Position numbers and translations under genes: made by a program. This document shows positions 46,608 through 54,165 of a stretch of 64,000 nt of DNA, in pieces. Location: NCBI GenBank assembly GCA_028718635.1, contig JAQULK010000001.1:316692-380691 (forward strand), given 5' to 3'. The DNA comes from Minisyncoccota bacterium (GTDB lineage Bacteria > Patescibacteriota > Minisyncoccia > Phycocordibacterales > UBA9973). The notes beneath the pieces were generated by a model that made no database searches, was not told the origin of the DNA, and saw only the letters and a list, made by a program, of their open reading frames with translations. How positions within the stretch are numbered: the stretch's first letter is position 1; the number at the start of each line of letters is the position of its first letter.

Positions 46608-47948
46608 TTATTTCTTTAGTTTCGTTTCTTTTAGATCTTTCGCTGTGTCCTTTGCGGTGTCTTTGGTATCTTTTGGCGTTTGATGATGGAGCGATTTATG
46701 TTCGTCGGTATTTAAAATTCCACAGTCTTTGAATTTCTTGCCACTGCCACAGGAACAAGGTTCATCTGAGGTGCATTTATTTATCGATACAATTTTTGTT
46801 GGCTTGAACCCATTGAAGAAAGAGGAAGAAGCGGTGGTATAAGCGCCGATGTTTTCAGCATAAAGCAAATCATCAATTTCTAAATCCTCCGGCAATTCAT
46901 CTGATAGGGAAATAGTGTCGAAAGCATCACAAGTCGGACCAAAAGTAGCGCAAACTTTGTTTTCTCCATCTTTGAAAGAATGAAGAGGATATCTTTGGTG
47001 ATCGTAAACTTGTCCAGAAAAAGTATTGTAAACTCCGTCATCTAAATAATAGCAAGTTTTTCCATCTCGAATAGATTTACCGATAATTTTTGTCACTAAA
47101 GTACAAGTGTTTGCCACCATAAATCTTCCTGGTTCGGCGATGACATCGACATCCCCATTGAACATTCTTTTGATTTCTGAGTTAATTTTTCTAGCCAACA
47201 TTGGAAAAGGTTTCACGTCCGGAGTATATTTCACAGGGAAACCGCCTCCGATATCCAAGACTTTCATTTTTTTACCGTCTTTGTCTATAAAACCTATATC
47301 CAGCCCTCTTAACTTTGCTTCTTTAAAAATAGAAGAAGATAAAGAAAGGGCTAAAACATAATTTTCAAAATTATTGCATTGGCTGCCCACATGAAAGCTG
47401 ATACCTTCCACTCCTAGTCCCATACCGATAGCTTCCGCCATCAAGTCGACTGCTTCTCCTGGATGAACTCCGAATTTACTGGAAAGCTCTACCATAGATC
47501 CAGTGTTCGGCACGCGAATGCGCAACACCAGACGCACGTCTGGTGCATTTTTCTTTATTTTCTTTAACTCTTCAATGTTGTCAAAAGTGACCAAAGGTTT
47601 GTAAATATTCAACTTTCTTAAAATGGAAGCTGGTTTGATAGTATTGGCATAAATTATATTATCCCAGATATATTGCTGTCTTTCTTTTTCAGGCAAATGC
47701 TTAATATTGTTATAAACTTTCATAAATTCTTGGAAGGAGGCCACATCAAAACTAGCTCCCATGTCATACATGGTTTTTATGATATCAGTATCAGAATTGG
47801 ATTTGACTGCAAAATACGCCTGGACTGTCGGTAACTTTTCTTTAAATTCTAAATAATTTTGTCGCAGTTTTTCATGGTCCACCACCAAAAGAGGGGTGCC
47901 GTGTTTTGCGGCGAGCTCAAGCAATTGTTTTTTTTGTTGGGTGTTCAT
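46608..47948 (-). CDS. Fold-III PLP decarboxylase of the ornithine/lysine decarboxylase (eukaryotic-ODC-like) family with a C-terminal SEC-C-like zinc motif and a KDT-repeat tail
   Basis: FAVKSNSD..., GFDVAS, GPTCDAFD; CSCGSGKKFKDCG. Confidence 0.78.
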   Translation of the reverse strand: MNTQQKKQLLELAAKHGTPLLVVDHEKLRQNYLEFKEKLPTVQAYFAVKSNSDTDIIKTMYDMGASFDVASFQEFMKVYNNIKHLPEKERQQYIWDNIIYANTIKPASILRKLNIYKPLVTFDNIEELKKIKKNAPDVRLVLRIRVPNTGSMVELSSKFGVHPGEAVDLMAEAIGMGLGVEGISFHVGSQCNNFENYVLALSLSSSIFKEAKLRGLDIGFIDKDGKKMKVLDIGGGFPVKYTPDVKPFPMLARKINSEIKRMFNGDVDVIAEPGRFMVANTCTLVTKIIGKSIRDGKTCYYLDDGVYNTFSGQVYDHQRYPLHSFKDGENKVCATFGPTCDAFDTISLSDELPEDLEIDDLLYAENIGAYTTASSSFFNGFKPTKIVSINKCTSDEPCSCGSGKKFKDCGILNTDEHKSLHHQTPKDTKDTAKDTAKDLKETKLKK

Positions 47949-48067
47949 CCCGTTAGAAGCAGGTCGCGGTCATTGCGCCGTAACTATGCTTGATTATGTT
48001 TATAAATTTTATATGTTTCATTTTTTATATATTTTTATTTTAAACTGCGACCGCGGCTTCTAACGGG
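47949..48067 (+). repeat. Family A element, copy A3 (inverted orientation); abuts the start codon of the decarboxylase gene
   Basis: Arms cccgttagaagcaggtcgcggtc / gaccgcggcttctaacggg. Confidence 0.85.
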
Positions 48068-48124
48068 ATAAATAATTTGTTTATTGTAAGGTAATTAGAA
48101 ACAATGTCAAGCAAATACAAAATA

Positions 48125-49213
48125 TTATTTTATATAATTTTTCTTTACAAGGAGTTCTGCATTTAAAATTCCTCCACCGGCGGCACCGCGGACAGTATTG
48201 TGGCTCAAGGCTACGAATTTATAATCAAAAATTTTACATTTTCTTAGACGGCCGACAGTCACAGCCATACCTTTGTCGTTATCTCTGTCCTTTCTTGGTT
48301 GGGGACGATTTTCTTCCTCTTGGTAAATAATGGGACAAGCAGGAGCGAAAGGGAGTTTAAGCTCTTGGGGTATCCCTTTAAAATTTTTCCAGATTTCTAT
48401 AATTTTTTCTTTTGTCGGTATTTTGTTTTTAAATAAAATATTAACGCAAGCTAAATGCCCGTCTGTTACAGGAACTCTAGTGCATTGCGCAGAAATTTCA
48501 ATATCTTTTTTCTTGATAAATTTTCCATTTTTAAGACTGCCTAAAATTTTTAAAGGCTCTTCTTCCGTTTTTTCTTCTTCACCTCCGATGTAAGGGATGA
48601 CATTGTCGATCATATCCAAGCTTGGTACTCCGGGATAACCAGCTCCGGAAACAGCTTGAAGCGTAGTAATAAATATTTTTTTAATGGGATAGCCGGCTTT
48701 TTCTAAAGCAAAAATAGGGGTGATGTAACTTTGTAAACTGCAATTCGGTTTGACCACAATAAAACCCTTGTTCCACTTATGATTTTTCTTTTGTTGTTCA
48801 ATCATTCCTAAGTGTTCAGGATTAATTTCTGGAATAATCATAGGAACATCTTCAGTATGGCGATTAGCGGAAGCATTAGATACAACAGGGATCCCTGCTT
48901 CAGCATATTTTTCTTCTATTGTTTTAATCATTTCTTTGTCTTTAATTTCAAATGCTGAAAAAACAAAGTCGCATTTTTTCTTTGCTTTTTCTACATCAAG
49001 CACGTCTTCCACCATAATATTTTCTATATTTTTAGGAATTAGAGAATTCATTTGCCAGCGTCCAGAAACAGCCGTAGCATATTTTTTGCCAGCTGAATTA
49101 ACTGAGGCAGCCAAATATACAACTTCAAACCAGGGGTGGTTTTCCAAAAGACGAATATAATTTTGACCCACCATGCCAGTAGCACCCAAGATTCCAACTT
49201 TGAATTTTTTCAT
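48125..49213 (-). CDS. asd: Aspartate-semialdehyde dehydrogenase
   Basis: GILGATGMVGQ NAD site; the Cys-containing active-site region could not be read out as an explicit motif; overall family pattern. Confidence 0.85.
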   Translation of the reverse strand: MKKFKVGILGATGMVGQNYIRLLENHPWFEVVYLAASVNSAGKKYATAVSGRWQMNSLIPKNIENIMVEDVLDVEKAKKKCDFVFSAFEIKDKEMIKTIEEKYAEAGIPVVSNASANRHTEDVPMIIPEINPEHLGMIEQQKKNHKWNKGFIVVKPNCSLQSYITPIFALEKAGYPIKKIFITTLQAVSGAGYPGVPSLDMIDNVIPYIGGEEEKTEEEPLKILGSLKNGKFIKKKDIEISAQCTRVPVTDGHLACVNILFKNKIPTKEKIIEIWKNFKGIPQELKLPFAPACPIIYQEEENRPQPRKDRDNDKGMAVTVGRLRKCKIFDYKFVALSHNTVRGAAGGGILNAELLVKKNYIK

Positions 49214-52790: not shown

Positions 52791-52797
52791 TTAACTT

Positions 52798-52911
52798 TGA
52801 ATTACAAAACATAAACTTTTCTTCGGTACGGATTTTTTGAAGCTTAAAAAATCCTGAAGTTCTCGGCTCGTCAGCCTCGAAACCCCTTCGAAAAGTTATG
52901 TTTCATAATTC
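52798..52911 (+). repeat. Family B element, copy B3; ends immediately before the ATG of the decarboxylase gene at 52912
   Basis: Core shared with B1 and B2. Confidence 0.8.
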
Positions 52912-54165
52912 ATGATAAATATCATGTCACATTGCAATCCGGAAGAAAGACAAGTTGAGCCTTGGGTTAACGAAGAAGGTTTTCAAAAATTGAATTTAAA
53001 AAATGTTGAAACTCCTTGCTATATTGTAAGCGAGGGGAATCTTGAGCGTAATTTAAAAATTCTCGAAAAAATACAGAAAGATTTAGGAGTAAAAATTTTA
53101 ATTGCCCTTAAATGCTTTTCGATGTATTCTGTCTTTCCGCTCATAAGAAAATATTTAGCGGGGACAGAAGTGAGTTCAGTAAATGAAGCGCGTCTAGGAT
53201 ATGAAGAATTCGGCAAGGAAAATCATATTTTTTCTCCATCCTACACCGATAAAAATATCAAAGAATATATAAAATACGGCAACCATATATCTTTCAACTC
53301 TTTTTCTCAATGGAACAAGTTCAAAAAAACCATCAAAAATTCCCTCGGTCGTAGCCCTACGGGTGAGACCAAGAAAAAAGTGTCTTGCGGTATCCGAGTA
53401 AATCCAGAACACAGCGAAGGAACCATGCCTATGTATGACCCTTGTGTGCCCCGTTCGCATCTAGGCGTGACTTTAGCGAATTTTGAAACAAATAACATGG
53501 AAGGGATAGAAGGATTGCATTTTCACACTCTTTGTGAAAATGGCGCCGATAAGTTTGCGCGCACTCTGAAAGCTTTTGAAGAAAAGTTTGGAAAATTTTT
53601 AGGAAAGATGAAATGGGTAAATTTCGGAGGCGGGCATCTTCTTACCAATTCCGATTATGACCTTGATTTGCTTTATAAGGTCGTTTCTGATTTTAAAAAA
53701 AGATACCCGCACTTGACGGTCTATTTCGAGCCGGGAGAAGCAGTAGTGATGAATACCGGAGGTCTAGTGGCTTCTGTGATAGACATTTTTAATAACGGAG
53801 TAGATATTGCCGTTCTTGATGTGTCAGCGGCGTGTCATATGCCGGATGTTTTAGAAGTGCCGTATTTGCCGAAAATTGTGGGTGCGAAACCTATAACTGG
53901 TAATTGTAAAATTGAGGGAGAAAAAAATGTTTATAAGCTAGTGGCGCCGACGTGTTTGACTGGAGACGTTATCGGTTTTTATTCTTTTCCTAATAAATTA
54001 AAAATCGGAGACAAGATAATTTTTCTCAATATGGCGATTTATACGATGGTAAAGAATAATACCTTTAATGGAGTCAATTTGCCGAATATCACCAAGATGG
54101 ACAAGAAGGGGAAAATAAAGGTCTTGAAAAGATTTGGGTATGAGGATTTTAAAAGAAGGCTATAG
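52912..54165 (+). CDS. nspC: Carboxy(nor)spermidine decarboxylase (NspC family)
   Basis: TPCYIVSEGNLERNLKIL ... ILIALKCFS ... GGGHLLT pattern of NspC. Confidence 0.78.
   Translation: MINIMSHCNPEERQVEPWVNEEGFQKLNLKNVETPCYIVSEGNLERNLKILEKIQKDLGVKILIALKCFSMYSVFPLIRKYLAGTEVSSVNEARLGYEEFGKENHIFSPSYTDKNIKEYIKYGNHISFNSFSQWNKFKKTIKNSLGRSPTGETKKKVSCGIRVNPEHSEGTMPMYDPCVPRSHLGVTLANFETNNMEGIEGLHFHTLCENGADKFARTLKAFEEKFGKFLGKMKWVNFGGGHLLTNSDYDLDLLYKVVSDFKKRYPHLTVYFEPGEAVVMNTGGLVASVIDIFNNGVDIAVLDVSAACHMPDVLEVPYLPKIVGAKPITGNCKIEGEKNVYKLVAPTCLTGDVIGFYSFPNKLKIGDKIIFLNMAIYTMVKNNTFNGVNLPNITKMDKKGKIKVLKRFGYEDFKRRL

Follow-up and report, generated by a model that had tools for sequence, protein, structure and literature searches.

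A candidate self-supplied spermidine pathway in Patescibacteria, with aspartate kinase and aspartate-semialdehyde dehydrogenase encoded beside the polyamine genes

Patescibacteria, the bacteria of the Candidate Phyla Radiation (CPR), are thought to have shed nearly all biosynthesis and to depend on hosts, and CPR genomes generally lack genes for amino-acid biosynthesis. In one such genome, that of a Minisyncoccota bacterium (assembly GCA_028718635.1), an aspartate kinase (AK) and an aspartate-semialdehyde dehydrogenase (Asd) are encoded within a cluster of polyamine genes, which raises the question of what the aspartate beta-semialdehyde (ASA) they would produce is used for. We addressed this question in a 64-kb window, that is, the whole stretch of DNA analysed (positions 316,692 to 380,691 of the 672-kb contig JAQULK010000001.1), and absences reported for the window cover that stretch only. 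From gene content and comparison with related loci, we propose that the cluster probably encodes a compact, self-supplied, ASA-dependent spermidine pathway, consisting of AK-Asd, an ornithine decarboxylase (ODC), an enzyme of the carboxyspermidine dehydrogenase (CASDH) family and the decarboxylase NspC, a route that would take in two enzymes usually counted as amino-acid biosynthesis.

Gene content and conserved arrangement of the cluster

An earlier note on this DNA, made from the letters alone, had listed six open reading frames (ORFs) for the cluster; all six are present at the positions it gave, and the identities it proposed for them were upheld by family assignment, using Pfam and NCBIfam/TIGR profiles with curated cutoffs together with sequence comparison to the PDB. 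Three genes lie on the reverse strand: that of an alanine-racemase-fold, pyridoxal phosphate (PLP)-dependent decarboxylase, most likely an L-ornithine decarboxylase (46608..47948), an archaeal-type asd (48125..49213) and a gene for a 297-aa AK consisting of the catalytic domain only (49466..50359). The forward strand carries the genes of a DcsG-like ligase of the ATP-grasp fold (50558..51367), a NADPH-dependent reductive condensing enzyme of the CASDH family (51540..52790) and the carboxy(nor)spermidine decarboxylase NspC/CASDC (52912..54165). Asd matched TIGR00978 over its full length (401.8 bits, cutoff 301.2) as well as NF006416 (488.2, cutoff 232), AK matched TIGR00657 (214 bits, cutoff 208.7), and NspC spanned all positions, 1-380 of 380, of TIGR01047 (474.6 bits, cutoff 409.05), a family assignment that covers carboxyspermidine, carboxynorspermidine or carboxyaminopropylagmatine (CAPA) as the predicted substrate. 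The condensing enzyme contains the Sacchrp_dh_NADP (PF03435, 71 bits) and Sacchrp_dh_C (PF16653, 90 bits) domains and matched the four solved CASDH-family structures 4ina, 8deb, 8h4z and 4rl6 at 327-370 bits, with full-length matches to 4ina (370 bits) and to the Bacteroides fragilis CASDH structure 8deb (346 bits).

The start codons ATG 50359 for AK and ATG 51540 for CASDH were preferred over those of the longest ORFs, because promoter-like sites lie upstream of them (TTGACA-16-CATACT at 50377..50404 on the reverse strand and TTGACA-16-TAAACT at 51475..51502 on the forward strand) and homologues begin at the same methionine. These sites come from a consensus scan only, supplemented for the CASDH site by a comparison that found it kept in the related locus L006; a third site, TTGACA-16-TACAAT, agreeing with 11 of 12 consensus positions, lies 5' of the ODC gene (48083..48110, reverse strand).

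In the pathway that we propose, AK would convert aspartate to aspartyl phosphate with ATP, Asd would reduce the latter to ASA with NADPH, and the PLP-dependent ODC would supply putrescine from ornithine; the NADPH-dependent CASDH-family enzyme would then condense putrescine with ASA to carboxyspermidine, which NspC, likewise PLP-dependent, would decarboxylate to spermidine.

The arrangement of these genes was surveyed from both of its ends. For the kinase end, one genome per GTDB species was scanned with an alignment of Patescibacteria kinases, and homologues of every cluster gene were mapped in each 20-kb AK locus, giving 35 Patescibacteria-type loci (AK 44-79% identical) and, as controls, 45 loci with distant AKs from diverse phyla (27-34% identical). 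NspC-CASDH stood directly upstream of, and divergent from, AK-Asd in 27 of the 35 Patescibacteria loci, two of the remaining eight being cut by contig ends, and Asd followed AK in 33 of them, while neither CASDH nor NspC was found within 10 kb of AK in any of the 45 controls. The reverse survey, seeded with CASDH in metagenomes, yielded 80 loci, in which AK-Asd adjoined CASDH only in the Patescibacteria-type loci L089 (92% identical) and L090 (68%); at the end of its contig, L107 contained a fragment of a bacterial-type Asd, and the other 77 loci (41-49% identical) had no adjoining AK-Asd. The recurrence in 27 of 35 loci against none of 45, together with the CASDH-seeded result, argues for a lineage-specific conserved module rather than chance. 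Thus, the linkage of AK-Asd with CASDH-NspC is a conserved Patescibacteria architecture, and the claim that AK and Asd sit in a polyamine cluster instead of a lysine, threonine or methionine context applies well beyond the one genome for which it was made.

The core of the pathway is already known, either as the ASA-dependent spermidine route (CASDH/CASDC) or as its CAPA variant. A literature search found no published account of AK/Asd linked to CASDH/CASDC in Patescibacteria/CPR, and the papers on the CAPA and spermine routes make no mention of such clusters. To the extent that the literature could be searched, the conservation of AK and Asd within a polyamine cluster of Patescibacteria is new, as are three features described below, namely a deletion series in the regulatory domain of AK, a class of dehydrogenases with a C/F/E signature and an inter-domain ODC with a SEC-C-like tail. 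If our proposal is correct, the conserved five-enzyme route marks spermidine as one of the few metabolites that Patescibacteria insist on making, and matches to lysC and asd in such genomes, now scored as fragments of lysine, threonine or methionine pathways, need to be reread.

The aspartate kinase and the fate of its product

The window AK matches positions 2-276 of the 442 positions of TIGR00657, at which point the match ends, whereas its full-length relatives P0162 and P0099 span positions 2-441; the part absent from the window AK therefore corresponds to the canonical regulatory region, as anticipated by the earlier note, which had described a kinase devoid of allosteric ACT domains. Pfam ACT models did not detect the C-terminal region even in full-length Patescibacteria AKs, and so the correspondence was judged by coverage of TIGR00657. 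The score against TIGR00656, the monofunctional class, was 199, below the cutoff of 402.25, and the conserved KFGG and GRGGTDTTA motifs are present, as invariant columns of the Patescibacteria AK alignment (A2).

In this alignment, the AKs of the window and L009 are 286-297 aa long and close relatives (72-85% identical) 282-295 aa, intermediate lengths are found in the slightly more distant P0094, P0096 and L008 (373-374 aa) and L089 (332 aa), and all other Patescibacteria AKs measure 436-459 aa. The series shows a stepwise loss of the regulatory domain, from ~445 through 373 and 332 to ~290 aa, confined to this subclade. The terminal '...YNKFIK' of the long AKs still ends some of the short forms, which points to an internal in-frame deletion. 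Such natural deletions form a ready series for tracing the simplification of a branch-point enzyme once a single sink remains: were AK-Asd to serve one pathway, feedback by amino acids would be dispensable and the regulatory domain could erode. The loss seen in the window sublineage fits such a single-sink role without proving it.

The earlier note had suggested that polyamine synthesis is the chief use of ASA in this genome, which is plausible from the genes around the cluster. Pfam annotation of 40 further ORFs of the window identified no genes of the lysine, threonine, methionine, ectoine or shikimate pathways, of the 6-deoxy-5-ketofructose 1-phosphate (DKFP) route or for AguA/B; it returned housekeeping genes only, including those for RpoB/C, RpoD, DnaG, GyrB, four aminoacyl-tRNA synthetases, MreB/C, Tgt and RNases. 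However, two points weigh against an exclusive use of ASA in polyamine synthesis. First, this absence of other ASA consumers covers 64 kb, about a tenth of the 672-kb contig. Second, in three related loci (L026:7874-12554, L033:4616-9004 and L034:8181-12554) AK-Asd directly follow genes for 2-amino-3,7-dideoxy-D-threo-hept-6-ulosonate (ADH) synthase (277.6, cutoff 241) and 3-dehydroquinate (DHQ) synthase II (421, cutoff 392), in shikimate clusters that also encode EPSP synthase, chorismate synthase, shikimate kinase/dehydrogenase, prephenate dehydrogenase and prephenate dehydratase, and so appear to serve another ASA sink, the archaeal-type DKFP entry into the shikimate pathway, of which we found no literature report in CPR bacteria. 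These three loci indicate that, in the loci seen, AK-Asd go together with a non-canonical ASA sink, whichever one is there, and never with lysine, threonine or methionine genes, and that a polyamine-only role is not universal in the phylum.

The same loci, together with L017 and L041, where no polyamine gene adjoins AK-Asd, would also suit a housekeeping supply of ASA to several pathways (diaminopimelate/lysine for the cell wall, threonine/methionine, DKFP), in which adjacency to the polyamine genes would reflect no more than shared use of a substrate; for a Saccharimonadia genus, a 2026 preprint took lysC and asd in this way, as part of general amino-acid metabolism. We consider a housekeeping supply distinctly unlikely for the window, seeing that lysine, threonine or methionine genes are absent from the assigned neighbours in all 35 Patescibacteria AK loci, 27 of which have AK-Asd divergent to CASDH-NspC, that no such pathway genes occur within the 64 kb, and that an enzyme at a branch point towards several amino acids would hardly be expected to lose its allosteric domain in full.

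Amine supply and dehydrogenase specificity

The clustered decarboxylase matched PF02784 (162 bits) and PF00278 (62 bits) and carries an additional C-terminal SEC-C domain (PF02810). Its best PDB relatives are bacterial lysine/ornithine decarboxylases (2plj, E 5.5e-62), ahead of eukaryotic ODCs (~1e-46) and diaminopimelate decarboxylases (~1e-21). The sequence contains the motifs AVKSN, GPTCDAFD and DDGVY, which we take to hold the PLP-binding Lys, the CD motif and the Asp equivalent to Trypanosoma brucei D332, respectively; ODCs have Asp at this last position, where the viral arginine decarboxylase (ADC) that derives from ODC has Glu. The window decarboxylase is thus most likely an L-ornithine decarboxylase that would make putrescine.

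Further support comes from archaeal homologues. The catalytic part of the protein is 74-78% identical, over its full span, to dozens of 392-aa proteins of the archaeon Candidatus Methanoperedens, a level of identity that implies a recent horizontal transfer between domains. On a Methanoperedens contig (L088:6510-9179), the ODC homologue (76% identical) directly follows a Sacchrp_dh gene that had no NCBIfam match and was identified as homospermidine synthase (HSS) by a PDB match (E 3.4e-102). Since HSS uses up putrescine, this neighbourhood provides independent contextual evidence that the ODC makes putrescine. The window protein differs from the archaeal-type forms by its tail (46608-46790, reverse strand; residues ~387-446), in which a SEC-C-like Cys motif, CSCGSGKKFKDCG...EH at about aa 396-417, is followed by a Lys/Asp/Thr-rich stretch; the CxCx8C...EH pattern is conserved in the tailed relatives (74-95% identical) and missing from the 392-aa forms. 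In SecA, the SEC-C motif binds zinc, SecB and ribosomes.

Most relatives are equipped differently, having a SpeA-like 458-aa decarboxylase gene after Asd and an agmatinase-like gene of the arginase fold adjoining NspC (TIGR01230 171.2, just under the 174.3 cutoff). AguA and AguB take the place of the agmatinase-like gene in L012 and L022, and in L016 AK-Asd are flanked by AguA and AguB. Among the loci compared, the ODC-type gene occurs only in the window and in L006/L009 (the syntenic L006 gene being 94% identical), none of which has a ureohydrolase, and tblastn detected no arginase-fold, SpeA-like or AguA/B gene within the 64-kb window. The comparison shows that the horizontally acquired ODC has replaced the arginine decarboxylase and ureohydrolase of the relatives in this sublineage. 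The 1.1-kb gap after NspC, where relatives have an arginase or ureohydrolase gene, was considered as a decayed copy of one and rejected, as it holds an RNase P RNA and gave no arginase trace by tblastn.

Whether the dehydrogenase uses putrescine was assessed at the substrate-signature positions taken from Xi et al. (PMC10599626). In that study, the agmatine-specific CAPA dehydrogenase (CAPADH) of Synechocystis has the signature N104/F113/E228, with F113 and E228 contacting the guanidinium group and N104 hydrogen-bonding to it, and exchange of N104 for Ala or Gln raised the Km for agmatine 7-150-fold, while the signature is I113/W126/D241 in the Agrobacterium tumefaciens CASDH and V112/E125/D240 in the carboxynorspermidine dehydrogenase (CANSDH) of Vibrio cholerae. 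Enzymes of the N/F/E type preferred agmatine in seven species, orthologues from Helicobacter pylori, Streptococcus pneumoniae and Bacteroides uniformis are among those covered, and the phylum list given for the CAPA pathway omits Patescibacteria (PMC10599626). The B. fragilis enzyme published as a CASDH is also N/F/E, and was published without agmatine as a test substrate.

The window enzyme has C110/F119/E240, and C/F/E recurs in all 25 Paceibacteria-type homologues, whatever accessory genes are present. N/(L,M)/E is found in a Magasanikbacteria-like clade, and N/F/E in 72 of 77 distant homologues and in all four solved ones. The designation of this protein as a carboxy(nor)spermidine dehydrogenase in the earlier note therefore stands as to family, given its domains and its match to 8deb, but has to be refined as to substrate, for C/F/E matches neither the CASDH/CANSDH signatures nor that of CAPADH exactly. 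These mixed signatures, including the N/F/E of the B. fragilis CASDH, mean that the specificity of the dehydrogenase is not readable from sequence, and C/F/E enzymes that occur amid swappable ODC, ADC-ureohydrolase and AguAB sets provide good test cases for the unsettled distinction between CASDH and CAPADH.

From the genes around it, we nevertheless infer that putrescine, and not agmatine, is the amine used. Putrescine is favoured by the clustered ODC-like decarboxylase with its HSS-associated close homologue, and by the lack of a ureohydrolase or AguA/B in the window; moreover, ODC, ADC with an agmatinase-like gene, and ADC with AguA/B interchange around one core, for which a common putrescine intermediate is the simplest explanation. 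Against this stands the signature itself, which is neither the I/W/D of CASDH nor the V/E/D of CANSDH and keeps two of the three CAPADH residues, F119 and E240 being equivalent to the proposed guanidinium contacts F113 and E228 of Synechocystis; the same C/F/E is found, in addition, in relatives whose ADC and arginase-fold genes correspond to those of the CAPA route. In that route, agmatine, either taken up or produced from arginine by the 'ODC', would be condensed with ASA to CAPA, and NspC would convert the latter to aminopropylagmatine, either as the end product or to be finished by a ureohydrolase encoded elsewhere. The CAPA route has to be taken seriously as an alternative, above all in the relatives, most of which (among the Paceibacteria) have the SpeA-like decarboxylase together with the agmatinase-like gene adjoining NspC, and the prevalence of the agmatine-preferring N/F/E type among solved and distant homologues adds to its appeal. 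For the window we nonetheless judge it unlikely: it would have to operate with no arginase-fold, AguA/B or SpeA-like gene within 64 kb, the decarboxylase retains the Asp of DDGVY and groups with lysine/ornithine decarboxylases, its archaeal homologue partners a putrescine-using HSS, and Cys110 occupies the very position at which N104 substitutions impaired agmatine use. The AguA/AguB relatives L012 and L022, too, are more simply read as putrescine makers.

Curated family names suggest yet another product. The highest scores went to NspC and NF043000 ('carboxynorspermidine synthase'), which would point to norspermidine as in Vibrio, with 1,3-diaminopropane as its precursor. This is barely credible here: the dehydrogenase scored 302.8 against the NF043000 cutoff of 800 and lacks the V/E/D signature of the V. 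cholerae enzyme, neither the cluster nor the window nor the related loci yielded a diaminobutyrate aminotransferase or decarboxylase, and the clustered gene is of the ODC type.

Returning to spermidine from putrescine as the probable product, these observations could be drawn together in a wider proposal, which we put forward tentatively, with confidence a little short of even. In Patescibacteria, AK-Asd would constitute a portable ASA cassette, detached from amino-acid synthesis and joined in most lineages to spermidine synthesis and in a few to the ADH-synthase/DHQ-synthase-II entry into the shikimate pathway; in the window sublineage the cassette would serve spermidine alone, so that the allosteric domain of its kinase could erode completely, and the C/F/E dehydrogenases would form a third specificity class, acting on putrescine or on both amines. 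Such a class, if real, would explain why ODC, ADC with a ureohydrolase, and ADC with AguA/B are interchangeable modules.

Inserted and neighbouring features, and comparison with known systems

The remaining gene of the cluster, that of the ATP-grasp protein, was tentatively assigned by the earlier note to the module, with an amide-linked conjugate as its possible product. Its position between AK and CASDH, its orientation with CASDH-NspC and its genuine carboxylate-amine ligase fold, with invariant R52, K92, K129, E166, R219, D221, E234 and E236, would indeed suit a working member that ligates a carboxylate to the polyamine or an intermediate. Such membership is very improbable in light of the related clusters: the gene is missing from the three closest relatives (L006/L009 and L089), whose AK-CASDH intergenic regions contain no gene and measure 132 bp (L006) and 135 bp (L089), and no homologue is found in any of the 35 Patescibacteria reference loci. 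Its G+C content at third codon positions (GC3) is 0.507, ~4 standard deviations above that of 31 other window genes (0.314 +/- 0.048, maximum 0.410), and its homologues occur with DpnI/DpnII restriction-modification, TIR, integrase, resolvase, toxin-antitoxin or signal recognition particle genes, never beside polyamine genes in the contexts examined. Furthermore, the ATP-grasp gene is followed by a stretch of ~110 bp directly before CASDH, TTGACA-16-TAAACT site included, that is almost the same in L006. On the combined evidence of its absence from related clusters, its outlying GC3 and the conserved promoter that CASDH retains 3' of it, this gene is a horizontally acquired insertion into the AK/CASDH divergent promoter region, unrelated to the module.

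The DcsG-like family to which this protein belongs has ~90 members, nearly all from Patescibacteria and unannotated. Its members tend to occur, as in L001, L002, L003 and L005, in islands that also encode restriction-modification, TIR, Fic, integrase/resolvase and toxin-antitoxin proteins, which suggests that the family may have a mobile or conflict-related role, though the window protein had no PADLOC match that would make it a known defence component.

The 252-bp spacer between AK and asd (49214..49465, reverse strand) is highly structured, folding as RNA at -81.9 kcal/mol (z = -7.1), and consists of two hairpins, a 3' element (49356-49466) and a 5' leader (49214-49330) reaching up to the asd ATG. 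We considered whether it is a relic of the kinase regulatory domain and rejected this, as tblastn gave no significant match to the AK C-terminal region; the spacer, which is only 28 bp long in L006, is a lineage-specific filler of two repeated hairpin elements. The leader, a ~117-nt long-stem hairpin (CCCGTTAGAAGCCGCGGTCGC, an AT-rich loop, GACCGCGACCTGCTTCTAACGGG), is present in four copies in the window, at 245-361(+), 14333-14449(+), 47949-48067(-) and 49214-49330(-), and also occurs at L015:17498-17611 and L023:2811-2821; its motif gave 8 matches against 0.66 expected. The 3' arm of each window copy abuts an ATG, at 362, 14450, 47948 and 49213, belonging to genes for a UvrD-type helicase, a NusB-NUDIX fusion, ODC and Asd, respectively, and the copies display compensatory stem changes and TATAAT-like boxes in their loops. 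The element may be a mobile cassette that provides a leader or a promoter; a polyamine-specific leader was rejected, since it also precedes the helicase gene and nusB and is hence genome-wide. The second family, 110-140 nt long with AAT(T/C)(A/G)CG(G/A)AAC termini, occurs at 3395-3505, 49356-49466 and 54168-54308, directly 3' of the stop codons of the helicase, AK and NspC genes, and may be a terminator-like element or one resembling repetitive extragenic palindromes or miniature inverted-repeat transposable elements.

Downstream of NspC, the bacterial class A RNase P RNA (RF00010, 111.9 bits) occupies 54355-54662 on the forward strand, and in the close relative L089 it is found at the same place on the opposite strand (5334-5642). 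A small ORF at 54958-55151(+) follows, with a strong Shine-Dalgarno sequence (AAAGGAGGGAAGGAG-ATG) and a ~64-aa Cys-rich product (CKYCNK...CGCSKD) without a family match, and then a gene for an EamA/DMT-family transporter (55257..56177, forward strand; PF00892), homologues of which adjoin the cluster in L007/L018, L011, L012, L021, L022, L025, L032 and L089; this transporter could possibly move a precursor or the polyamine. Also recurring near the polyamine cluster, in L007 (5515-6345), L011, L022 and L025, is a 276-283-aa protein encoded in the window at 59594-60445(+). It is 51% identical to the L007 copy, occurs in distant Paceibacteria together with an EamA transporter and also a histidine kinase, and had no Pfam, NCBIfam or PADLOC match; a single-sequence AlphaFold2 model reached a pLDDT of 40.6 and was unusable.

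Other features of the window include a GyrB (6980-10357, forward strand) whose core is separated from its Toprim domain by an intein (PF14890), and a 465-aa queuine tRNA-ribosyltransferase (Tgt; 45201-46598, forward strand), in which a low-complexity insert splits the Pfam match in two and one 11-residue peptide is present twice. Unusual fusions are NusB-NUDIX (14450-15403, forward strand), D-Ala-D-Ala carboxypeptidase-PGA_cap (18913-20829, reverse strand) and GNAT acetyltransferase-ASCH (57638-59071, reverse strand), the last encoded 3.5 kb from the polyamine cluster.

Several known systems resemble parts of this locus. The inserted ATP-grasp protein is 20% identical to the D-cycloserine synthetase DcsG (PDB 6jil) and scored 18.3 bits against the NF058666 cutoff of 360, and its surroundings contain no cycloserine-pathway genes. 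The window AK has counterparts in size in the short archaeal AKs NF006234 (PRK08373, 338 aa) and TIGR02078 (AspKin_pair, 327 aa), which at ~330 aa are likewise under the canonical 400-450 aa; however, it falls below the cutoffs of both (159.4 against 237 and 125.2 against 242.4, respectively), and it derives from a 445-aa Patescibacteria AK by recent deletion. The closest functional analogue of a pathway-dedicated AK is Ask_Ect, an aspartokinase that is encoded among the ectoine genes, escapes feedback by lysine and threonine, and retains its ACT domains. As with Ask_Ect, the window AK is encoded inside a cluster whose pathway would use ASA, but it lacks the whole regulatory region, is co-clustered with Asd and may be the only AK of the genome.

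The pathway itself resembles the CASDH/CASDC route of Campylobacter jejuni, A. tumefaciens and gut Bacteroides (Hanfrey et al. 2011, as cited in PMC10599626; PMC10413350), with which it shares two core enzyme families encoded by adjacent genes, namely a condensing enzyme of the saccharopine-dehydrogenase fold and an NspC-type PLP decarboxylase, as well as ASA as the aminopropyl donor; putrescine would be the acceptor here as it is there. It differs from CASDH/CASDC systems in having AK and Asd in the cluster, which was seen in none of the 77 distant CASDH loci and none of the 45 distant AK loci, and from the A. tumefaciens enzyme in having C/F/E in place of I/W/D, the window ODC being further set apart by its SEC-C-like tail. 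With the CAPADH/CAPADC/APAUH system of Synechocystis (PMC10599626) it has in common a homologous dehydrogenase and decarboxylase and the F and E residues of the signature. The full CAPA-like gene set, with a SpeA-like ADC and an arginase-fold gene by the decarboxylase, is a feature of most Paceibacteria relatives, whereas the window departs from the Synechocystis system in its ODC-type decarboxylase, its lack of a ureohydrolase and the replacement of the signature Asn by Cys.

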